Shown here one piece after another: positions 1,648 to 12,343 of a stretch of DNA of 12,343 nucleotides. The stretch lies in the NCBI GenBank assembly GCA_025059595.1, contig JANXDI010000032.1, forward strand, positions 1 to 12,343, in the 5' to 3' direction. Under the pieces are notes generated by a model, which made no database searches, had not been told where the DNA came from, and worked only from the letters and a program-made list of their open reading frames with translations. The translations under genes were made by a program, and so were the position numbers. The stretch is from Candidatus Calditenuaceae archaeon. Lineage in GTDB: Archaea > Thermoproteota > Nitrososphaeria_A > Caldarchaeales > Calditenuaceae. The stretch's first letter is position 1. Each line of letters starts with the position of its first letter.

Positions 1648-2591
1648 GCGCGGGGGTCGCCCATAACTGGGTATATCATTCAGTTATGATTAGACACGTT
1701 AAGCTTGAAGGCAGGATTAGAACATTAGAACCTCTTAGAGTTGGCATGGGTCGGAGCGAACAGCCGAGCGCTGTAACCGATATGCCAGTCATAAGGATAA
1801 AAGAGTTGAGTAGGGGTTTGGAGGTCCCATATATTCCAGGCTCCTCCCTTAAAGGTCTCTTTAGGAGCGCGGCCCAATCGCTAGCAAGGGCGGCCGGCGT
1901 TAGGCCGGAGCCATGCTCAGGGCTCTCTAAAGATAACTGCATGGTCTTGAAGAGAGTTGATGGAGAGCAGCTAGGCAACTTAGTTGATCGGCTGCTTAGG
2001 ATGGGAGAGTTTCAACGTGCAATAAACACTTTCGCGGATAGCGCGTGTCTCCTATGCAAGATTTTCGGATCCCCTACATACAAAAGTAAAGTATCATTCA
2101 TAGACTCCTATCCTATTGACGATGGAGGCCAGCTAGTAAGTGTTCCAGTAAGTGTGAAGACTGGAATAGCTATAGACAGATCAACCGGCGCAGTTTTTGG
2201 AGGAGCGCTTTACAGGGTTGAATTCGTGGAACCGGGGGCCCTCTTTACCCTCTCATTCACCATTCATAACCTTCCTAACTACGCTTTAGGCCTACTGTCA
2301 GAGATAGTTGAACTGCTGAACGAGGGGTTGCTTCGCGTAGGGGGGTTCAAATCGAGAGGTTTTGGAAGGGTCAAATTCGAAAAAGTCGACATTAAGGTAA
2401 GGCATCACCTGCCTATCTCGGGAAGCGAGGAGGGTTTGAACGCCCTCGACAGTTACGATGTACCTGTGATGGTGAAGAGGAGTGAGGTCTGTGACGGATT
2501 GCTAGTTTACAGTGGTAGCGAGGCAGAGAGCCTGCTGAAGGGGCTAAGGGAGGTATGGAGAAGATATGTCTCTTCAACAGGTAAAAGTTAG
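1644..2591 (+). CDS. cas7: Cas7-family RAMP backbone subunit, second paralogue (Csm3/Cmr4-like with insertion)
   Basis: Motifs IPGSSLKGLFRS, CLLCKIFGS and glycine-rich loop VGGFKSRGFGRVKF, with an Asp in SAVTDMPVIRI. ATGA start/stop overlap with the upstream gene, and GAGGTGA Shine-Dalgarno 10 nt upstream. Confidence 0.85.
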   Translation: MSAGVAHNWVYHSVMIRHVKLEGRIRTLEPLRVGMGRSEQPSAVTDMPVIRIKELSRGLEVPYIPGSSLKGLFRSAAQSLARAAGVRPEPCSGLSKDNCMVLKRVDGEQLGNLVDRLLRMGEFQRAINTFADSACLLCKIFGSPTYKSKVSFIDSYPIDDGGQLVSVPVSVKTGIAIDRSTGAVFGGALYRVEFVEPGALFTLSFTIHNLPNYALGLLSEIVELLNEGLLRVGGFKSRGFGRVKFEKVDIKVRHHLPISGSEEGLNALDSYDVPVMVKRSEVCDGLLVYSGSEAESLLKGLREVWRRYVSSTGKS

Positions 2592-3588
2592 GCGCTCCCC
2601 GTATAGGGACCGGCGAGAATTCCAGCCGATAGAGGGTTATATGTCTGTTGAGCTGGAAGTATGCGGCCCAAGCACATGTGGAGTAGAATCTTACTTATTT
2701 GTCGGGTCAGGCGAGGAGAAGATCTTAATTCGGGATAGAGGGGAGCTGAAGCGGCAGTTAGCTGCGAGAGAGTTAAGTGACGGTCTGATTCAGAGTATCG
2801 CTAAGGAGCTTGTATCTGAGGGCGAATCGTTTCAGAGGGCAAGAGACCCTGAGACTCAAATGGTAGTTCCTGTGATATTCGGGAGCTCTGTTAAAGGCAA
2901 CATCAAGTCAAGGCTGCAGCTAACGTTGCGGCCGTCTCAGGGAACAGCGGTTACGTGTATTTTCCCCTATAGGCCGCTTAAGGGTGCCCCTCCTGTCGGG
3001 ACGCATGGCTGGAGACACTTCCGAATATGGCAAAACTCTCTAGCCTACACTAGGGAAGGCGTATGCAATGCAACCAATTCTCCCGAGGTCTGCGTGGTAT
3101 GCGATCTACTCGGTGCCCCCGGTTTGTCATCCTTAGTTAGCTTTGGAACATTTTACGGGAGGGGGGTCTCTACTACAGAGCTTAGCGAGGGTGCCGTAAG
3201 GCTCGTCGCTGCGACCCCTGGCTCAAGGTTCACAGGCTCGATAAGCTTTAGAGGGCTGAAGTTGAGTGAGGTCGGACTACTTCTCATAGGTATGGGCTAC
3301 ACACTCAAGGGTGGCAAGATAGATAAAATGCCGGTCCTCTTCGGATCCCACAAGTATAGGGGCCTCGGAGGCAAAGTAATGGGTAGAGTCGTGTACAATG
3401 TGCGAGACATATCGACGTCATCTAGATGCAGAGGCGAGTATGATGTTAATCCTGGTCGGAAGTATGATGGTGGTGGGTTAGACGACGTACTTACAAAAGC
3501 GCTTAACCGGGCATATGAGGAATATGGCCAGTATATCGAACAGATAGATGAAAGTAGGGCTGCTGAAGAAGTGATGAGACATGTGTAA
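2566..3588 (+). CDS. Large divergent RAMP (Cas7-like; Csm5/Cmr6/Csx7-type candidate)
   Basis: Motifs VIFGSSVKGNIKSRL and CVVCDLLGAPG, plus glycine-rich loop GSHKYRGLGG. An alternative start at ATG 2641 (MSVELEV...) would remove the 26-nt overlap. Subfamily is not resolvable by eye. Confidence 0.65.
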   Translation: MSLQQVKVRRSPYRDRREFQPIEGYMSVELEVCGPSTCGVESYLFVGSGEEKILIRDRGELKRQLAARELSDGLIQSIAKELVSEGESFQRARDPETQMVVPVIFGSSVKGNIKSRLQLTLRPSQGTAVTCIFPYRPLKGAPPVGTHGWRHFRIWQNSLAYTREGVCNATNSPEVCVVCDLLGAPGLSSLVSFGTFYGRGVSTTELSEGAVRLVAATPGSRFTGSISFRGLKLSEVGLLLIGMGYTLKGGKIDKMPVLFGSHKYRGLGGKVMGRVVYNVRDISTSSRCRGEYDVNPGRKYDGGGLDDVLTKALNRAYEEYGQYIEQIDESRAAEEVMRHV

Positions 3589-6295
3589 CGGACTCAAGGT
3601 TTACAGAGCGTTCATAATTCCACTTGAGGGCGAGCGTGTGAGGGAGGTTAGAGATGACGATAAGGAGTTTTGGAGAGATCTGATAACTAATAATCTCAAG
3701 ACCTTCTTACGACTCTCCCTGGATTTGGCAGGGAAGGCTAGGGGGCAGGAGTTAAACCGCGCAGAGAGACTAGAGCTTTTAGCAGATCTGATCACCTTCT
3801 TTTTCAAAGCCCCCCTCACGTTAGATCCAATCCTAAGCTTGGCTCCCTCGCCGCACAGGTTATATTTCTATCTAAGACTCATGGGTAAGACCCATGAAGC
3901 CATACTGAGACACCCAATCCCTGATAACCAGATTCTATCCAGTATCAAGGTTCTTGAAGAGAGCCTTGAGAAGGAGGGGAAAAATCCGTTAACATTCCTA
4001 TATGGAGGACATGTGAGAGAAGCGGTCAGGAGGGCTTGGCTTATCTTCCCCGCAGACACGAGGCCGGGAGCCAATACGGCCAGCCTCGTCGCACACCTTC
4101 TAGTCACATCCTCGATAGCTTGGTCGCTCGCTTATCGCTCGCGACGGTATGAAAGTGGAGAGCTCGCTATGATCAGGCTCGCCTCGCAGCTACATGACAT
4201 AGCAAAGCCATTAGAACCTATCGAGCACTTCCGCGAAAGGGTTTATGGCTCTCTAATCGACTCGCTTTTCGAGGGGTTACTTGAGGAACACGAGTTGACT
4301 CAGCTGAAGTCAACCGTCAGCTCGCACCACCAGGATAGGACGAGCTCCCTGCATAGAGCCGATACACTGTCAGCCTCAATCGATAGAGTAAGGGAACTGG
4401 TGAGAAAAGCTCTCAGCGAGGAGTTCAACTCACCGGAAGTAAGGGAGATCGTCAGGAGTATCGCCAGCAATCAGACTGACCCGTTCGAGCTGGCCTATGG
4501 AGGAGGGAAGGAGGCGTGGACATTTTGGGTCGAACTAGAGAAGAGGTTATGCGGTAAATCTAAGGAACTCTCCTTAAAGTTTCTCGAGTGGCTTGACGCG
4601 CAAAGCGAGTACAAAGTGGAGCGACTCGCAATTGATGAGTTAAGCTACTTTCTCATAGACGTCAAGGGGGTCCAGTCTTTCGTTTACCGGTCGCATAAGC
4701 TTACCGCAGTCGCGGCGGCCAGCCTCCTCATCGACTACCTCACCGCCCTGGTTATCCCTCTTTACACCCAATTATACGTGAAAAAGAAAGCGGGAGGGGT
4801 ATGGCTCCCATTAGAGTCTTTCCTCCTGACCTCGGGTGCGAACGTAGCGGGCATATTGCCTAAAAACCTGTTAGATGATTTCCGTGGCGCTCTTAAATCT
4901 TTAGATGATTTCTTGAGTGATTATCGATTAGGCTTCAACACCGCATTTACTCAATTCCAAAATTTCTATCCGCATATGTGGGAGGAAATTGGAAGGGAGA
5001 TGGCCATTGTGAAGATTTCGCCCGGAATAGGTGTTGAAAATGATGTCGAGGAAGGTTTCAACCCAGCTCAACTGTGTAGGCTTTGCTTCAAGCAAGAGGG
5101 GATCCGTGAACTGAGGACTCTGGGGCCAGTTTGCGTCACATGCGATAGGCTTCAAGACTTTGGGAGGACGCTGGGCTTCGGTTCAAAATGGGAGTCGGGG
5201 TTTTTGCTGGAGAGAAAGATCGTCCCACAACACGTCTGGGGCTGCGAATATGGAGATGAGGGAGACGTCTCAAGCGTAGCGTCTAACGTGATGGAGCTGA
5301 TATCGGGAATGGAACCACCATTCGACGGGAGGGAGTTGAATGTAGGCGTCATCAAAGGGGATGGGAATAGGATGGGTGAGTTCTTCTCCAGGTCGATATC
5401 TATTAGCGATGCTCTCGAGAGGAGCTTCCGTCTTGACCAGTCCCTGCGAATCGGATATGAAAAGGCGATCAAAGCGATACTATCAGCTTACGGAGAGGAT
5501 GATATAAAAGCAAAGAGGGATGCCTGCAGGGTCTGGCTCGGGACACTCTATATGGGAGGCGACGACTTTCTAATAATATCACCTTCCTGGCTATCACTCC
5601 CCCTCGCATACATAATTGCGAAAGAGTTCGAAAATAATATGGGCGGTAGATGCACACTTTCGATCGGAATAGCATCTGTACCGGCTAAACACAGCGTTTG
5701 GCACGCCATCAAGGCAGCAGACGAGTTAATGGATGATGCAAAGGAGTCCATAGGGAGGCGGGAGCTAAAATCAGCGGTCTCATTTGATGTCGTTGAGCGG
5801 GGGCCGCTGACAGGAGAAACGGCCTTGACTAGGCTGAAACGTCAGACGGATCTAGGGCTGAGCGCCAAGCCTTATGTCCTCCACGACTCGTCTCAACTCG
5901 CGCTAGCTGACCTCCTAAGCGTTCTCGGATACAACTTGCAGAGGTACGACCCCGCTGATATTATGCGTGTAGCTACCCTTCACAGACCGCGGGGAGGGGA
6001 TACCCAGGAAAAAGTTAGGCTTAGGAGGGTTTGTGAGGCCGTCAGGGATATCCTATCATCGGTCGCCCCCATGATTGGCGGCTGGGATGAGTCGAAAAGA
6101 CGAGTGGCGCTCCTGCTATCTCAACTCTATTGTTATCGCGAAGCTATTGATAAGAGCAGAGATGAGGAGATCCGCGCAGCCTTTAGAGACATAACAACGC
6201 TCGCATCTAAGCGCGTATGGAGATCTTCGGTGGAATCGCTCCCTCTATTAGACCTCTACTTCTGTGCGAAGATATTGGGGGGAGGGGAACTGTGA
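3581..6295 (+). CDS. cas10: Cas10 large subunit with HD nuclease motifs and an intact GGDD cyclase palm
   Basis: 904 aa. Motifs present: PADTRPGANTASLVAHL; HD at aa 205-206 (nt 4193-4198); SSHHQD/LHRAD; Palm1-like YFLIDVKGVQSFVY; four-Cys finger CRLC...CVTC (aa 499-521); IKGDGNRMG; GGDD at aa 659-662 (nt 5555-5566). Confidence 0.95.
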   Translation: MCNGLKVYRAFIIPLEGERVREVRDDDKEFWRDLITNNLKTFLRLSLDLAGKARGQELNRAERLELLADLITFFFKAPLTLDPILSLAPSPHRLYFYLRLMGKTHEAILRHPIPDNQILSSIKVLEESLEKEGKNPLTFLYGGHVREAVRRAWLIFPADTRPGANTASLVAHLLVTSSIAWSLAYRSRRYESGELAMIRLASQLHDIAKPLEPIEHFRERVYGSLIDSLFEGLLEEHELTQLKSTVSSHHQDRTSSLHRADTLSASIDRVRELVRKALSEEFNSPEVREIVRSIASNQTDPFELAYGGGKEAWTFWVELEKRLCGKSKELSLKFLEWLDAQSEYKVERLAIDELSYFLIDVKGVQSFVYRSHKLTAVAAASLLIDYLTALVIPLYTQLYVKKKAGGVWLPLESFLLTSGANVAGILPKNLLDDFRGALKSLDDFLSDYRLGFNTAFTQFQNFYPHMWEEIGREMAIVKISPGIGVENDVEEGFNPAQLCRLCFKQEGIRELRTLGPVCVTCDRLQDFGRTLGFGSKWESGFLLERKIVPQHVWGCEYGDEGDVSSVASNVMELISGMEPPFDGRELNVGVIKGDGNRMGEFFSRSISISDALERSFRLDQSLRIGYEKAIKAILSAYGEDDIKAKRDACRVWLGTLYMGGDDFLIISPSWLSLPLAYIIAKEFENNMGGRCTLSIGIASVPAKHSVWHAIKAADELMDDAKESIGRRELKSAVSFDVVERGPLTGETALTRLKRQTDLGLSAKPYVLHDSSQLALADLLSVLGYNLQRYDPADIMRVATLHRPRGGDTQEKVRLRRVCEAVRDILSSVAPMIGGWDESKRRVALLLSQLYCYREAIDKSRDEEIRAAFRDITTLASKRVWRSSVESLPLLDLYFCAKILGGGEL

Positions 6296-6924
6296 AACTT
6301 ACCATCGAACTAAAGACTTTGAGTCTTTTCAATACGGGGGGAGTCACGCCCACTTTCATGTACTACGATATCCCGTTCCACCGGACGAGAGACCCGGGCT
6401 CGAGAATTTATAAACCGACCATTTCCGGCTCGAGCCTAAAGGGGGCCTTGAGGTCGGCTCTAATAAGAATCGCCGACGCATTCGGGTTGAGCGTCTGTTC
6501 CGAAAGGCCCAACTCACGCGACAATTGTGATATATGCTACCTCTTCGGGGCCCCTGGGGGTGGAGGATCAGTCTATGTCAGCGACCTTGTCTGTGACTCG
6601 AAGACACTCCTTTTAACTCACGTCTCACTAGACGACAGGAGCCTAACTGCGAGGAGACACGCTCTATACTCGGTGGAGTACGTTCCGCCCGGAACCATCT
6701 TCAGAGGTGAGATCGATTATGAGGGTGAGGCGAGACGGCTAGGCCCTCTCCTTCTAGCATTAGCGGCTCTAAGAACCGATAGGGTGGGCAGGAGTGGGAT
6801 TTTAGACCTCAGGGTGGTAAATGCCGGAGAAGTGAGGAGGAGCGTCTTAAAAGATCTCGGGAGGTACGAACCCCTATTAGAGGGGTTAGGGGTGTGGGCG
6901 TGGGATGAGATCCTACAGATGTAG
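6292..6924 (+). CDS. cas7: Short Cas7-family RAMP (Csm3-like), third backbone paralogue
   Basis: Motifs ISGSSLKGALRSAL and CDICYLFGAPGGGG. I place the start at GTG 6292 (VKLTIELKTLSLFNTGG, a typical RAMP N-terminus). It overlaps the cas10 stop as GTGA and follows GGGGGGAGGGG. The ATG 6217 of the ORF track lies inside cas10. Confidence 0.8.
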   Translation: MKLTIELKTLSLFNTGGVTPTFMYYDIPFHRTRDPGSRIYKPTISGSSLKGALRSALIRIADAFGLSVCSERPNSRDNCDICYLFGAPGGGGSVYVSDLVCDSKTLLLTHVSLDDRSLTARRHALYSVEYVPPGTIFRGEIDYEGEARRLGPLLLALAALRTDRVGRSGILDLRVVNAGEVRRSVLKDLGRYEPLLEGLGVWAWDEILQM

Positions 6925-7966
6925 GCTGAAGATCCTATCACCCACGATAATCGGAGACTCCCGGAGCCAGAGAGGGGTATACACAGCGACCCACATAATC
7001 CCGGGGCACACATTGGGTGGAGCGATAAACAGAGAGCTAGCGAGGAAGTATGAATTAAGTTCTATGACTTCGCGGGGCTTGGTGATTTCCTCGCCAGCTT
7101 ACCCAGCTAGGGAGGGAAGTGAGGCCATACCCGCCCACCCCTTTTACTATGAATGTAAGGTCTGTGATGATTTGAGATTCTCAACACTTAGAGAAGGTAG
7201 TCTCTTGAAAGTCGTGAAGGATGGGCTGACCGGTGTAAGGAACGAAGTTATCATGCTGAAGTGCGGTGTAGGACATCTGCTCAAGTCGCTACATCCTCGC
7301 CCCATAATGTTGATCCAAGGTAAGGTCGTGAAGACGAGTGTGTTGGTACAGCCACTAATCTCTGTAGGTATTAACAGGCACACCGCCTCATCCCAGACGG
7401 GACTACTTTACGAGTACACAGCAATAGAGCCGGGACGTGAATACTGGTTTACACTAGCGTCAATAGATGATCTAGAGGTGCCCAATAAGCTCGAGGTGAG
7501 ACTGGGTAGGGGCACTTCCAGAGGCTTCGGCAGAGCTCTCATTGAGGTAATAGAAAGAGAAGTGAAATTTAGTTATGATATAGAACCTGATTCATGGATC
7601 ATGATGTACGCTTTATCTCCAGTCCCGGCGAGATACATTAATAAGCGTCTCGAACTGAAGGAAAGCGCCAATAATTATGGTCTTGGAGGCGTCGACGGTT
7701 CCCTCGAACCAGTTATGGTTTTCGGTAAGCTGGAGTCCTTCAATTTAGGGTGGCCTCACGGATCGCCAGTCTCTCGCGGAAGGATAACCTGCCTAGTCGC
7801 AGGGAGCGTCATAATTTACAGATGGGCTGAGAGGCCGACGAACCCGCTCGAGTCATTGAGGGTTCTGAGGTTTTTAGGGATGCCTTTGCGACTGACTACG
7901 GACGTTATCCATGGACTCTGTATGCTACACCCCTTTAGGGAGGAGCCTTTACTGGAGGTCAGGTAA
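6905..7966 (+). CDS. csx10: Cas5-family RAMP (Csx10/Csm4-like)
   Basis: N-terminus CRLKILSPTIIGDS...THIIPGHTLGGAINRELA and glycine-rich loop LGRGTSRGFGRALIE. There is no CxxC-FG Csm3 motif. At 353 aa it could hold two RRM-like halves. The only RAMP here with Cas5-like rather than Cas7-like signatures. Confidence 0.6.
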   Translation: MRSYRCRLKILSPTIIGDSRSQRGVYTATHIIPGHTLGGAINRELARKYELSSMTSRGLVISSPAYPAREGSEAIPAHPFYYECKVCDDLRFSTLREGSLLKVVKDGLTGVRNEVIMLKCGVGHLLKSLHPRPIMLIQGKVVKTSVLVQPLISVGINRHTASSQTGLLYEYTAIEPGREYWFTLASIDDLEVPNKLEVRLGRGTSRGFGRALIEVIEREVKFSYDIEPDSWIMMYALSPVPARYINKRLELKESANNYGLGGVDGSLEPVMVFGKLESFNLGWPHGSPVSRGRITCLVAGSVIIYRWAERPTNPLESLRVLRFLGMPLRLTTDVIHGLCMLHPFREEPLLEVR

Positions 7967-7968
7967 CC

Positions 7969-8910
7969 ATGCACCTAAACCCTCTTCAAATTAGGGCATT
8001 GGGAAGGTTCACGTTCCGATGCCATTCAGGTCTTCAGATCGGAGTAAGGGGCGAGGGCACTCAGAGGTTCGCCCTCCGAGTAGGGGAAAATCTACTCATA
8101 CCCTCAACCTCGTGGAAAGGGGCTTTTAGGTCTGTCTCAGAGAAGATAATAGGCTCGATGGATCTGAGCGGTGTCGTAGCCCTTCTCCGCGAGCTTTACG
8201 GTGAGGATGAAGATGGGGTGGCGTTTAAAGATCGCAACGGAGGAACCGGCACTTTCGATAGAGTCCTAGATCAACTCACTGCCAACCCGGGCCAACTTAT
8301 CAGGGAGTTAGAGAGGCTCGTCGTTGGCAACGAGGAGCTGATGAGTAGGTTAAGGGGGATAAGGGAGTCAAACGAGTTGAAAAGGTTCCTAAAGGAGGAG
8401 AGGGAGGGGAAGAGCCTTACTCAAAGATATCTTGGCTTGCTGTATCCGATCACATCCTTGTACGGGTCACCGGGCCTCGCCGGTAAGCTACGATTCCTAG
8501 ACACGGTCGCGAAGGCGGTTACTCATTGGAGGCCCGGTGTAGGCATAAACAGGTCGACGATGAGATCTGAGGAGGGGGTGATCTACGGTACTGAGGTACT
8601 CGTCCCCCTAGGTCAAAAGATAACGCTAAGCATGCTGATTGATAATGTCCTCCCCGCGACGACTGAGGCTGGAATCCTAGCATCAACGATAGAGTTGATC
8701 AAGAGTGAGGGTATACGGATTGGCAGCTCGAAGAGTAGGGGGCTGGGCAATTTAGAGCTTGTTGAAGAGGAGTCGTGGATTAAGGTGATGGATATCTCAG
8801 ACAAGGTGGATGCCGACGTTAAGATAAGGTATGTGACCTCCCCTCGAAACTGGACCCACCTCTCTTTAAAAGAGGCCTTGACTTGGCTCGAGGGGGGCGA
8901 TGACATCTAA
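7969..8910 (+). CDS. Cas7-like RAMP with a ~90-aa helical insertion (Csm5/Cmr6-like cap candidate)
   Basis: Motifs IPSTSWKGAFRSVSEK and LYGSPGLAG, plus glycine-rich loop IGSSKSRGLGNLEL. No Asp in the loop where the other Cas7 paralogues have one. GGAGGTCAGGT Shine-Dalgarno upstream. Confidence 0.7.
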   Translation: MHLNPLQIRALGRFTFRCHSGLQIGVRGEGTQRFALRVGENLLIPSTSWKGAFRSVSEKIIGSMDLSGVVALLRELYGEDEDGVAFKDRNGGTGTFDRVLDQLTANPGQLIRELERLVVGNEELMSRLRGIRESNELKRFLKEEREGKSLTQRYLGLLYPITSLYGSPGLAGKLRFLDTVAKAVTHWRPGVGINRSTMRSEEGVIYGTEVLVPLGQKITLSMLIDNVLPATTEAGILASTIELIKSEGIRIGSSKSRGLGNLELVEEESWIKVMDISDKVDADVKIRYVTSPRNWTHLSLKEALTWLEGGDDI

Positions 8911-9118
8911 TCTCGGAGCGCTTAAAATAAGTAGAGTTTCAGACAGCGACATTATATTGAGAGCCATCTCGACAATACTGAATAATAAGGAGGAGATTGT
9001 AGAAGACTATCTAAGAAAAAGCCTCGAGAAAGGGGACTCGCGAGACACAATACTTAGTAGTCTAACTAAGTTGTTGTACGAGGTATGGAAAAGTTTAGGG
9101 AGTATTGGGGGGAGATAA
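8900..9118 (+). CDS. Hypothetical 72-aa helical protein (possibly the N-terminal part of the next gene)
   Basis: The ATG overlaps the upstream stop by 11 nt, and GAGGGGGG lies upstream. The sequence looks helical and I recognise no motif. The last 34 nt overlap the next ORF across a G6 run. Confidence 0.45.
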   Translation: MTSNLGALKISRVSDSDIILRAISTILNNKEEIVEDYLRKSLEKGDSRDTILSSLTKLLYEVWKSLGSIGGR

Positions 9119-10092
9119 ATGAAAGAGAATTAGAGAATACACCCGCGAGAGATATCCTCTCGGAGCTCATTTCATTAGTGAACAAGGAATTTGTTAGTCG
9201 ATGCTACGATACTTACACTGAAATACTTATAAAGAAACTTTGCGAATATCAAAGTAAAAAATCTAGGATCGGAGACCTCATGATTATCAGATGCACCTTA
9301 CAAAGTCTCCTAATTGAAAAACATGTAGAAAAAATGACTTTTAGGGACGAAGCCGGTGAATTAAAACCATTAATAATTAGCGTGCGCAAAGATTTAGACC
9401 CTCGTTCGGAGGTTCAGTTACTGAAAGTAGTTTACGATCTCTACTTACGGCACGACCTTAGAGTTTTAGACCAAGTATTATATTTATTTTCAAACTATAA
9501 TTTTGAGCAGGGCGCGAGGTTGATAAATGAATACTTAATAGCTACGGACGAAGAGTCTAAGCAGAAGGCTATAAGCGAGATCGTTAAAAGTGCGCGAGCA
9601 ATAAAGAGGATTGGCGAGCTAGCACTGGCAAATGGAGATTATATGGACGTTTTGATGACACTGTTAAATGCTTTTCGATATATTTATCCAGCAAACTTAG
9701 TAGAGATGCTAACAGATCATTGGAGCAGGCTTGGCGAATATCTTTTGTGGTCTATTATGTTGCGGCATGGGGTTTTGTTTAGCCTTAACGCAGAATTGAA
9801 CCCTACCTTATGGAGCGGCACAGAGAAGAATAAGGCCGGTGAATTCGACGCGATCCTGCTCCCCCAAGAGGATCTTGATCTTATTTTTGTGGACGTAACC
9901 CTTGCGAGAGAGTTGAATGACAAGATTCAGAAATACGGCGAATTCCTTAAAAAAATCTCTCGTGAGGTTGGTGTGCGCGCGGCTGTATGGATTGTGCACT
10001 CAAGTTACGCAGATCGATTTGATGCTGATACGCAAGACGACCTCAAACTCATACCCCTGACATCCCTCCCCGACATCATTGCATCTTCGTGA
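9085..10092 (+). CDS. Hypothetical 335-aa protein: helical N-domain plus restriction-endonuclease-like (PD-(D/E)xK-type) C-domain with a non-canonical motif
   Basis: Long ORF and last gene of the operon. The C-terminal pattern reads as alpha-beta-beta-beta-alpha-beta: EYLLWSIMLRHG / VLFSLNAEL / GEFDAILL (D255, nt 9847-9849) / LIFVDVTLA (D270-V-T272, nt 9892-9900) / ELNDKIQKYGEFLKK / AAVWIVHSS. No CARF, HEPN or RAMP motif recognised. Confidence 0.7.
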   Translation: MEKFREYWGEINERELENTPARDILSELISLVNKEFVSRCYDTYTEILIKKLCEYQSKKSRIGDLMIIRCTLQSLLIEKHVEKMTFRDEAGELKPLIISVRKDLDPRSEVQLLKVVYDLYLRHDLRVLDQVLYLFSNYNFEQGARLINEYLIATDEESKQKAISEIVKSARAIKRIGELALANGDYMDVLMTLLNAFRYIYPANLVEMLTDHWSRLGEYLLWSIMLRHGVLFSLNAELNPTLWSGTEKNKAGEFDAILLPQEDLDLIFVDVTLARELNDKIQKYGEFLKKISREVGVRAAVWIVHSSYADRFDADTQDDLKLIPLTSLPDIIASS

Positions 10093-10555
10093 GAATTCCG
10101 TACATATTGTGCTATCCGCGGCTCTGACTTTCGGATTTGGATTGTTTTCAACGAATACTATGGCTACGCCGAGGCGGTTTTGCCATATTGGGGATATATA
10201 GTCTTGACTGTGTTGTTGGCTTTTCGACATGTTAGGATCTTCCCTTTCCGATATCTTTCCACGATCGTCAATAGAGGTTTAGCCGCCTCATAATCTCATC
10301 ATTGTGAGCTCCCTACATTGAATATATCGCCTCTGTCATGAATCTGTTCCGATTAACAGCGCTCTAAGGGCATTGTGGTCAAAGAACTTTCGGAAGGCTA
10401 GCGGGGAGTGTCTCCCGTCTGCGCAGACTCTTTGTAAGCCTCGATGCTCTCTGCGACGGAGTGAGGCGAGCCGCGAATTAGGCACTCTTCTCTGATTAGA
10501 TGTGGAGGGGAGACTCGACGAAAGGGTTAAAGTGAAGAAGACGCCAGTGAGTTTC

Positions 10556-11233
10556 TCACGGAGTCTCAGTCTGGATTCCGAGCTCCCGCAATATTGGCTT
10601 GATGGGAACGTCTACCCTCCTACTCTGGACAGCAACCTCAACCTTGTCAATGACCCCGGACTCTTGAGCGAGTCTCAGAGCTATGAGGAGCTGTGATAGT
10701 GAGTGATAAACCCTCGGCCAGTACCTTGAGTCTTCCGAGAGGCCCTCCCAATCGGGCGCGCTTCTAATATCTACTTTGGCCCTGTGAATCTCGGCTAGCT
10801 TCGCGGCGGGGCTAACCGACCAGCGCCTGTAAGCCCCGTCATCACCTGTGACTAGGATCTTTCCAGTTACTAGGTATGGATCTATTCTGGGGATGGCGGT
10901 GTCGCATGGATGGCCCGCAGTTGGGAAGACGTTCGGCCTTAACGTCATGACCTCTCTTAGAGAGAGGTAGGCTAAGCTGTCGAGGAGCTCTCGCGTGTCT
11001 TCGAGCCTGCCTTTCTTAACGGCTTCATAGACCCTCCGCTCAACCTCTGAAACGACGCATTCAGGCAGGACTATGGAGTGTCCCATGTAGCACAGAGTGT
11101 GGATCCCATAGTAGAGTACGTTTGTGTCGATGATTAGTTCCCTCACTCCCGCTCCATCCCTGAGGTCTAAGGAGTTGACACCCTCGGCGGATTTGCCGAA
11201 AGTCTTAAGGTTCGCACAGCCACTCCAAGCCAA
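10556..11233 (-). CDS. PIN-domain nuclease (VapC-like fold) with a ~90-aa C-terminal extension
   Basis: PIN motifs RELIIDTNVLYYG (D36, nt 11126-11128), SEVERR, CDTAIPRID and ILVTGDDGA supply the four acidic positions. The TTG start at 11233 from the ORF track is doubtful. GTG 11146 (VRELIIDTN) preceded by GGAGCGGGA is the best stand-alone start. The frame stays open upstream to 11365. Confidence 0.7.
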   Translation of the reverse strand: MAWSGCANLKTFGKSAEGVNSLDLRDGAGVRELIIDTNVLYYGIHTLCYMGHSIVLPECVVSEVERRVYEAVKKGRLEDTRELLDSLAYLSLREVMTLRPNVFPTAGHPCDTAIPRIDPYLVTGKILVTGDDGAYRRWSVSPAAKLAEIHRAKVDIRSAPDWEGLSEDSRYWPRVYHSLSQLLIALRLAQESGVIDKVEVAVQSRRVDVPIKPILRELGIQTETP

Positions 11234-12023
11234 TAATTCGTCAAACCCTCTATCACCCAGCTGTGACAGGAAACGCGACAGCCTTGAAAGAAGACCGCCC
11301 AGCTTACCCGCGGTGTAGAGTCCTCCCTCTCGAGCAAGTTCACGGCCCCCCGCGGGACTTTCACCTCAAGAACCGGGTCTTCACTTACTACGGACGGGTT
11401 TAGGAGACCTAGGTCAGCATATTCATTAACCCGCCTTGACAGCTCTCCAACACATCTTCTCGAGGGTCCAACGAGCCACCCCGCTCTCTCTTCATGTTCT
11501 AAGTCGGCGGCGAACCTGGCCGAGCTCCTGAATACTTTGGGAGCCGCGTCCTGGTGAGGCGTCAACGTGATAATTGGCTCAAGCCTCCAGGGACGTAGGG
11601 GTACGCGAGCCCAGCCCACTCGCCCCAATAGAACTCCAAGTGGGCCAGAACGATCCTCGAGAAGTCGGCGGCCTTCTTGATGAGGCCGGAGCATGCGATG
11701 GCGATGGCCGCCGCTACTCTCCTGCTGGCGGGTGAGAGGACGGCAACAACGCTCTTCGCATCGCTCAAGGCCGGCTCTATGACCTGGCCGTTTATGCTGT
11801 TAGATAGCCCAGGGCTCTCCTCAACCTCGAGCTTGGTCCTTCGAGCCCTACCCTCTCCGAACAAGGTACTCGCGACCTCCGCGACCTTCTGAGACTCGCT
11901 CTCCCCCCTATCGTAAATGATGTGGACGGAATTTACTTGAAATTCCTCGTAACATCTGTAGAGGCAGGAGAGCCCCGCCTCTACCGCGAGAGGCCCGCTA
12001 CTGACTGGTAAGACGAGCCTCAT
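11167..12023 (-). pseudogene. CARF-domain protein with a probable winged-helix C-terminus (Csa3-like), interrupted by at least one frameshift
   Basis: Frame 1 (12023 to 11565) reads MRLVLPVSSGP..., SVHIIYD... and VVAVLSPASRRVAAAIAIA..., with CARF-like strand/loop motifs, then EFYWGEWAGLAYPYVP and a stop at 11562-11564. A second frame continues protein-like (RLEPIITLTPHQ...RRCVGELSRRVNEYADLGLLNPSVVSEDPVLEVKVPRGAVNLLERE). A TTTTATAT box 27 nt upstream of ATG 12023 suggests a leaderless start. Confidence 0.55.
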
Positions 12024-12118: not shown

Positions 12119-12126
12119 ATATAAAT
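12119..12126 (+). promoter_or_regulatory. TATA box for the right CRISPR leader / pre-crRNA
   Basis: ATATAAAT lies 25-30 nt upstream of the conserved leader block starting at 12151. A box at the same offset is present beside the left copy. Confidence 0.5.
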
Positions 12127-12150
12127 GTCTCTCGAACCCAATTCACCATC

Positions 12151-12234
12151 TTAAATGGGGGTGCTGTACTTTAAATAGTGGGCTAAATTAACTGTATCTG
12201 CCACAAACCGGCCTTGGAGAAACGCCACTCCAAG
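12151..12234 (+). repeat. Right copy of the 84-bp inverted repeat; transcribed leader of the CRISPR array starting at 12260
   Basis: The reverse complement matches 1-84 at 79/84 positions. It ends 25 nt before the first CRISPR repeat. A hairpin CTTGGAG-N8-CTCCAAG lies at 12213-12234. Confidence 0.75.
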
Positions 12235-12259
12235 TCTCAGAACCCGGAAAAAAGGCACA

Positions 12260-12343
12260 CTGACCCCAAAAAGGGAATTGAGAGTGGTAATCGAGAATCT
12301 TTAGCTTTCGAGGTAGCTCTTTGATGCTCATCCCAAAAAGGGA
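12260..12343 (+). CRISPR. Start of a CRISPR array (repeat 1, spacer 1, partial repeat 2), continuing beyond the window
   Basis: CTGACCCCAAAAAGGGAATTGAGAG (12260-12284), a 42-nt spacer (12285-12326), then CTCATCCCAAAAAGGGA to the window end. The period is 67 nt and 15/17 comparable positions are identical. The repeat resembles the crenarchaeal ...CCCAAAAGGGATTGAAAG family and ends in ATTGAGAG where those end in the 8-nt tag ATTGAAAG. Fewer than two units are visible. Confidence 0.6.

Follow-up and report, generated by a model that had tools for sequence, protein, structure and literature searches.

A CARF_m3 (CARF-PIN) gene, likely pseudogenised by two one-base deletions, beside a type III-D-like cassette of a Calditenuaceae archaeon

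Effectors that join a CARF sensor to a PIN domain have been catalogued as the families Crf6 and Crf10/11 (PMC12669027, Supplementary Table 2). CARF_m3, which corresponds to Crf10/Crf11 of the 2025 CRISPR-Cas classification, is described as archaea-specific and is listed as a 'predicted RNase' (PMC12669027). In the Sulfolobales, the 'CARF+PIN' proteins of the ST0035 / Msed_1167 cluster accompany type III cassettes (Shah et al. 2018, PMC6546367), and ST0035 bound the cyclic oligoadenylate (cOA) cA4 weakly, with no activation of an RNase seen (PMC6546367). SiRe_0806 of Sulfolobus islandicus, deposited as a 'PIN domain-containing protein', has structures without ligand (PDB 9JXW) and with cA4 (PDB 9JXX), released in 2025; in the literature searched we found no paper under the names SiRe_0806, 9JXW or CARF_m3, and no biochemical activity for SiRe_0806. 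Here we analyse a stretch of 12,343 nucleotides (nt) from a Candidatus Calditenuaceae archaeon (contig JANXDI010000032.1 of assembly GCA_025059595.1), which we call the window. On its minus strand, positions 12023-10556 hold three overlapping or abutting pieces of coding sequence in three frames. We consider it likely that they are one CARF_m3 gene, recently pseudogenised by two independent one-base deletions.

A sequence-only reading of the window had described a PIN nuclease frame that stays open 73 codons upstream of its natural start, and had proposed that one extra base at a G-run would fuse it to a CARF and winged-helix frame as an effector of ~490 amino acids (aa). The parts of the gene are as follows.

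11589..12023, minus strand: segment 1 (frame 2), the CARF domain, from ATG 12023 (MRLVLPVSSGP...) to ...AYPYVP
11587..11592, minus strand: frameshift site 1 (-1, one base missing), the deletion placed at 11588-11592
11347..11589, minus strand: segment 2 (frame 1), 81 codons, WRLEPIITL...GPSRRCVGELSRRVNE...EVKVPRG
11346..11351, minus strand: frameshift site 2 (-1), G6 on the coding strand, C6 on the plus strand
10556..11346, minus strand: segment 3 (frame 0), with linker, PIN-like core and C-terminal part, ending at stop TGA 10558-10556
11134-11120 (IIDTN) to 10849-10829 (TGDDGAY), minus strand: the PIN-like core, inside segment 3
10559..10795, minus strand: the C-terminal part (AEIHRAK...GIQTETP), which follows the PIN-like core

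Joining frames 12023-11589, 11589-11347 and 11346-10559 gave a repaired protein of 489 aa. Restoring this single open reading frame (ORF) takes two added bases, one per site, both shifts being -1. A single base at the G-run is thus not enough to repair the gene, since a second -1 shift lies at 11588-11592; the sequence-only reading had hinted as much by asking for 11565-11700 to be resequenced. As called from ATG 12023, the first ORF continues past the junction in the wrong frame as far as TGA 11564-11562 and gives 153 aa (MCS7146540.1 and MDW8073141.1). Segment 2 holds the last CARF strand and a helical and hairpin linker region, and it retains the invariant P187, R189, R197, R198 and N200 of alignment A3. 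In frame 0, a stop at 11368-11366 is followed by 269 open codons from 11365 to TGA 10558-10556, with GTG 11146 lying 73 codons 3' of 11365. Our frame translations agree with the frame coordinates, the 73-codon figure and the C6/G6 run at 11346-11351 given earlier. It was also correct that the stretch before GTG 11146 contains neither ATG nor GTG; it does contain one TTG, at 11233, which NCBI calls use as the start of a 225-aa product (MCS7146539.1 and MDW8073142.1).

This upstream stretch had been said to read like real protein, and several observations support that claim. In the window's intact cas genes, 7.7% of off-frame codons are stops, and at that frequency the chance probability of a 73-codon open stretch is about 0.003. 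The stretch is homologous to family members and includes the conserved LAWSGCA at 11233-11213, and the PADLOC profile match in frame 0 begins at residue 35 of the open frame. Judged by this homology, the part of frame 0 that lies 5' of GTG 11146 is real coding sequence. Further downstream, frame 0 carries the motifs IIDTN, LPECVVSEVE, PCDTAIP and VTGDDGAY, with the conserved acidic residues D 11128-11126, E 11062-11060, D 10903-10901 and D 10843-10841.

Next to these reading-frame data, the family profile supports the assignment. PADLOC has two models for CARF_m3, PDLC01984 and PDLC01983. The repaired protein matched PDLC01984, 'CARF_m3--CARF_PIN', with E=3.4e-67, its residues 1-471 aligning to profile positions 1-425 of 433. 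All 13 aligned members matched the same profile (best E=1e-128), and the three fragments fell on it in colinear order, segment 1 at 1-130 (E=3e-22), segment 2 at 124-179 (E=1e-3) and segment 3 at 229-426 (E=1.8e-36); segment 3 also matched the 'CARF+PIN' model PDLC01182 at 7e-10. In Pfam and NCBIfam, neither the three fragments nor 86 family members matched any family significantly.

The repaired protein also aligned over its full length with intact single-ORF homologues of 471-483 aa. Two of them, P0001 (476 aa; HIQ29593.1, from a metagenome-assembled genome (MAG) of Candidatus Caldiarchaeum subterraneum) and P0002 (471 aa), covered 96% of the repaired query at 39-42% identity, with an identity of about 42-43% between P0001 and the repaired protein. 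In a profile search of 1.84 billion cluster representatives we found 116 relatives, 97 of them at E<=1e-10, and most of the 116 are 420-550 aa long and cover the whole profile. Full-length CARF+PIN orthologues in a single ORF were therefore found, as the earlier reading had suggested looking for. Among the five short matches that we read, P0006 (196 aa) and P0017 (153 aa) are gene calls of the window's own locus, and P0003 sits on a short contig. Alignments A1 and A3 were colinear across both junctions, and none of 12 close homologues was split there. When species-representative genomes were searched with the 13-sequence alignment, all 18 genomic loci belonged to archaeal MAGs, from Caldarchaeum, Desulfurococcales, Acidilobaceae, Pyrodictiaceae, Aeropyrum and Thermodiscus; the source of the window is annotated as Calditenuaceae/Nitrososphaerota. 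From these alignments we conclude that the three frames are, by homology, pieces of one ancestral gene of ~490 codons, with an N-terminal CARF and a C-terminal PIN-like domain. The earlier view that the CARF and PIN frames once formed one ~490-aa protein is borne out by the full-length match to PDLC01984.

We then considered the fold, using an AlphaFold2 model of P0001 built from an 86-sequence alignment, so that the fold results concern the orthologue. The model had a predicted local distance difference test score (pLDDT) of 93.8 and a predicted template modelling score of 0.94; with a 3-sequence alignment, pLDDT was 41 and the model was unusable. The top Foldseek matches in the PDB were 9JXX and 9JXW, SiRe_0806 with and without cA4, at E~5e-8 and over the whole length, followed by the CARF proteins Cam1, Can2, Csm6, Crn1, Cdn1, Card1 and Csa3. 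Foldseek against viral structures gave nothing meaningful. Residues 1-150 form a Rossmann-like domain that matched Cam1, Can2, Crn1, Csm6 and Card1. The N-terminal alignment with P0001 and P0002 includes LPVSxGP and VSPASRR, and the ligand-loop motifs LPVSSGP and LSPASRR are retained in the window. The CARF assignment is solid.

For the C-terminal half, the family alignment A2 (86 sequences) showed invariant D, E and D columns, the third acidic residue being preceded by a Cys that is almost invariant, and the D of DTN, the E of PECxxxE, the D of CD and the D of TGDD are all kept in the window. A profile search against PDB sequences gave weak matches to 9JXW (0.017, including the DTN strand) and Can2 (0.021). 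We base the PIN assignment on the family label, the conserved D/E/D/D, the structural match to SiRe_0806 and the alpha/beta pattern of the model. Between the two domains, the model has one helix, a beta-hairpin and two helices, and no helix-turn-helix (HTH) family was found in Pfam, NCBIfam and PADLOC scans of the fragments or in a Pfam scan of the 86 members. A winged-helix domain was rejected on these two grounds. Of the CARF-winged-helix-PIN architecture proposed from the sequence, the CARF domain (by fold and profile) and the PIN-like C-terminus thus stood and the winged helix did not. The extension of ~90 aa after the core, which had been left unassigned, aligned in all close homologues through the RLYYSLxQLLIALxLA helix, was matched by the profile to position 426 of 433, and was modelled as strand, long helix, strand and helix with pLDDT mostly above 90. 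Conservation across the alignment indicates that it is a portion of the family and no add-on.

At site 1 the coding strand reads GTC CCT/GG AGG CTT GAG CCA, where the slash marks the junction and the longest homopolymer is C3. Frame translations and alignments A1 and A3 set YPYVP/WRLEP of the window against YPYTPRRLEP of the homologues, and the ancestral sequence was probably CCT (C/A)GG AGG. At site 2, frame 1 (CGG GGG GCC) joins frame 0 at the G6 run. The ancestral run was probably G7; this junction sits in the variable hairpin region, and the length there agrees with a former G7. An exact-pattern scan of Joint Genome Institute metagenome contigs for G5-G8 alleles at site 2 found none.

Two missing bases could also be errors of sequencing or assembly, for example from homopolymer under-calling, with the gene intact in the cells. 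Consistent with this, site 2 is a G6 homopolymer, the gene is otherwise undecayed, and assemblies disagree at 9107-9112 and 9949-9955 in the neighbouring gene 8900-10092, with contigs from run SRR15826900 breaking exactly at the 9107 G-run. However, we recovered the same locus, at 99.93-100% identity to the window, as L003 (Logan, SRR15826899), as L004 and L007 (Logan, SRR15826900) and as L005 (GCA_033581375.1, an 813-kb contig). Both frameshifts were present and free of further indels in every contig that covers the gene (L003, L005 and L007), and the G6 run at site 2 was unchanged in the four other contigs for the locus. The lesions thus recur identically across two runs and one further MAG, and the same split products appear in two separate NCBI MAG annotations (MCS7146539.1/40.1 and MDW8073142.1/41.1). 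Contigs pass through both sites unbroken, and site 1 lies in CCCTGG, where runs do not exceed 3. Moreover, two random errors in one 1.5-kb gene would be unlikely when the window's other cas ORFs are uninterrupted over 12 kb, except for gene 8900-10092. We therefore regard an artefact as quite unlikely. We take the two frameshifts to be real. An uninterrupted two-domain ORF, a trait of CARF_m3, is absent from the window copy in all assemblies found, and the gene that had been proposed as the active ancillary effector of this locus is broken in every one of them.

The repaired protein departs from 2 of the 40 columns that are invariant in the 12 closest homologues, where intact homologues depart from 0-5, and none of the three used frames contains an internal stop. 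Because of these two results, either the lesions are recent or the gene is still used somehow.

Continued use could take the form of a functional split, with a separate CARF protein that binds cOA or acts as a ring nuclease and a stand-alone PIN RNase translated from TTG 11233 or GTG 11146. Stand-alone CARF ring nucleases exist, Crn1 being an example. The PIN core has kept every conserved acidic residue, the C-terminal part is intact as well, GTG 11146 is preceded at about 6-9 nt by a GGAG, and annotation pipelines call both ORFs. Nevertheless, the CARF fragment stops short of the last beta-strand (residues 144-149 of the P0001 model) and has eight out-of-frame residues at its end, and a split would leave unused about 80 codons of the middle segment that are still conserved. 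None of the five short matches was shown to be a natural stand-alone form, and a PIN domain detached from the sensor would be either inactive or constitutively toxic. On balance, we think a functional split unlikely.

Alternatively, two successive -1 ribosomal shifts, or transcriptional slippage at the G-run, could yield traces of full-length CARF-PIN protein. Both shifts are -1, re-pairing in the P site is possible (CCU to CCC at 11589-11592 and GGG to GGG at 11346-11351), and all three frames are undecayed. Programmed -1 frameshifting is known in a crenarchaeon, for fucA1 of Saccharolobus. Reading the sequence, we found no canonical tandem X XXY YYZ heptamer at either site, and RNA folding of the 95 nt downstream of each site was ordinary relative to shuffled controls (z = -0.8 and +0.2). 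In addition, none of the 12 close homologues is split, G6 is short for transcriptional slippage, and two inefficient events, one after the other, would yield next to no product. Programmed frameshifting is unlikely, although either site would formally permit a single P-site slip, and we hold recoding to be very improbable as an account of this gene. We give just as little credence to the related idea that the double -1 interruption is a throttling device that keeps a dangerous cOA-activated RNase at a sub-toxic level. If it were true, the homopolymer variation in the neighbouring gene 8900-10092 would be the same contingency-locus behaviour of the type III-D cassette.

Several points weigh against a recently pseudogenised CARF_m3 gene. 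PIN sequence profiles were non-significant (Pfam PIN_4, E=0.04-0.07), and a PIN-only profile matched none of the PDB sequences; of the profile support that the sequence-only reading had called for, the CARF_PIN family profile thus gave it and the Pfam PIN profile did not. Decay is otherwise absent and conserved residues are kept, which would fit a gene that is still expressed somehow. The assemblies may share one hot-spring population or project, and a systematic error specific to one platform is conceivable. The same assemblies differ in homopolymer length within gene 8900-10092. Finally, we found no experiment on any CARF_m3 member in the literature searched. Although homopolymer slippage evidently occurs in this population or data set, both lesions of the CARF-PIN gene are fixed.

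With recent pseudogenisation as the reading that we favour, our model is that the intact members most probably act as other CARF effectors do, a dimeric N-terminal CARF domain binding cOA made by Cas10. The ligand would probably be cA4, by analogy with the distant structural relative SiRe_0806. Binding would allosterically switch on a C-terminal, metal-dependent RNase of PIN type, and the activated RNase would degrade RNA and arrest the infected cell. Ligand binding and RNase activity are predictions of this model, as is their loss in the genome studied here. There, translation from ATG 12023 would halt at TGA 11564-11562 and leave a CARF fragment of 153 aa without the last strand of the domain. 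The 73 open codons before GTG 11146 would be the undecayed middle of the old gene, and the PIN part would have no ATG of its own.

On one side of the interrupted gene is a type III-D-like cassette, on the other a CRISPR leader with its array. The main features of this surrounding are as follows.

492-896: Csm2-like small subunit of the type III-D-like cassette
3581..6295, plus strand: cas10 of the type III-D-like cassette (NCBIfam, Pfam and PADLOC matches), with GGDD at 5555-5566
6905-7966: Csx10/Cas5 of the type III-D-like cassette, alongside several Csx7-like RAMPs
12121..12343, plus strand: CRISPR leader and first repeats, with repeat CTGACCCCAAAAAGGGAATTGAGAG at 12260-12284 and the next copy from 12327

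The GGDD of Cas10 is intact, as had been stated. It had also been stated that no other CARF effector is visible. This holds inside the window, but L005 encodes at 7254-8216 (minus strand) an intact 320-aa CARF protein, past the short array and ~1 kb beyond the window's right end. This protein matched the PADLOC model CARF3--CARF (E=1.3e-68) and a Csx1 model (E=3e-37), and its N-terminus reads GLGTSPGAV; it had no Pfam match and no obvious HEPN motif. It could be the remaining cOA sensor of the locus.

The whole cassette is flanked by a 114-nt inverted repeat, 1-114 against 12121-12234, with 84% complementarity. The two copies look like divergent CRISPR leaders, with arrays flanking the cassette. 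In L005 the right-hand leader has the sequence version of the left-hand copy, which may reflect an assembly cross-over between the copies. The CRISPR repeat is CTGA(C/T)CCCAAAAAGGGAATTGAGAG, 25 nt long, with spacers of about 41-42 nt (window 12260-12343; L005 8780-8972), and the L005 array has about 2 good repeats and further degenerate ones. The window and L005 differ in their leader-proximal spacer, and therefore near-identical strains vary in array content. Between the cas operon and the CARF-PIN gene, a 76-aa ORF (10000-10230, minus strand) without a family match is followed by about 325 bp of non-coding DNA at 10231-10555.

Among ten other family loci with long flanks, no cas family, RAMP and Cas10 included, was among the neighbours' 25 commonest Pfam families, and phmmer found no resemblance between the window's Cas proteins and the neighbours of homologues. 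A tight linkage of the CARF_m3 family to CRISPR was rejected on these neighbour searches, the exceptions being the window and L001 (DQVM01000065.1, Candidatus Caldiarchaeum subterraneum). In L001, a Cas3-HD gene at 1-748 (PADLOC Cas3a2, E=2.7e-26) lies directly upstream of the closest orthologue and reaches the contig end. The cas locus next to this closest intact orthologue is probably of type I and not of type III.

Lesions also occur elsewhere in the cassette. Gene 8900-10092, the last of the cas operon, has no assigned function and gave zero matches in Pfam, NCBIfam and PADLOC. In the window, a G6 at 9107-9112 splits it into 72 and 335 aa. In L003 the run is G7, and an extra A at 9949-9955 (A7 or A8, depending on the assembly) leaves 355 aa; in L005 the run is G7 and the gene is intact, with 397 aa. 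The two SRR15826900 contigs end and begin exactly at the 9107-9112 run. This variation is either a real homopolymer polymorphism, resembling phase variation, or a recurrent error site. Database records do not contain the exact product of 9085-10092, because other assemblies differ in homopolymer length there. In the RAMP gene 2566-3588, L005 differs from the window by two adjacent substitutions at 3410 and 3413 (ATA TCG to AAA TAG), and the resulting TAG leaves a called product of 257 aa rather than 340 aa, a possible further inactivating lesion of the same cassette. Overall, the cassette carries scattered inactivating changes.

On the reading that we favour, the two hypothetical proteins in GenBank are fragments of one CARF_m3 effector gene, and annotation as a pseudogene is due. 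The type III-D locus would then have a variable array and a Cas10 whose cyclase appears competent, next to a predicted cOA-responsive nuclease that has been knocked out. Scattered lesions across sister assemblies are the pattern expected if a toxic signalling effector is costly. Intact orthologues, P0001 (HIQ29593.1) in particular, are reasonable candidates for a first biochemical study of CARF_m3.

On this reading, the gene is neither a novel stand-alone PIN protein nor a new fusion. The earlier statement that CARF-PIN architectures were predicted yet uncharacterised is outdated, and the claim to novelty fails because CARF+PIN effectors are already catalogued, one (SiRe_0806; 9JXW and 9JXX) has been crystallised with cA4, and one (ST0035) has been assayed with cA4 (PMC6546367).

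Compared with VapC-type toxins, the PIN-like part shares a DTN-type first strand, conserved acidic residues and the weak match to PIN_4. It differs in that VapC toxins are about 130-150 aa, whereas here a fusion-protein linker lies upstream and the core continues into ~80 aa of conserved C-terminal extension. No VapB antitoxin gene adjoins the PIN-like part, the ORFs upstream of it are fragments of CARF_m3, and an ATG start is lacking. A stand-alone VapC was rejected on the absence of an antitoxin gene and on the homology of the upstream open frame to the sensor and linker of the fusion. Csa3 has the N-terminal CARF fold in common (Foldseek 6WXQ, E=0.1, rank 48). In contrast to its CARF plus winged HTH, the window family has no detected HTH, its C-terminal half is PIN-like, and its best profile is CARF_PIN. 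The ST0035 / Msed_1167 proteins resemble the window gene as CARF-PIN accessory proteins of type III cassettes. SiRe_0806 has the same order of CARF sensor and then PIN, and gave the best whole-chain structural match (TM 0.45-0.57), but identity is 11-12% and its length is 429 aa compared with about 480 aa. Because HMMER did not retrieve it significantly, SiRe_0806 belongs to a different CARF-PIN family. The closest described system is CARF_m3 itself, with an N-terminal CARF and a C-terminal PIN domain in about 430-520 aa and a whole-profile match that extends to all 12 close homologues. The window copy departs from it in its two -1 frameshifts and in its position, with a type III-D cassette directly on one side and a CRISPR array directly on the other.

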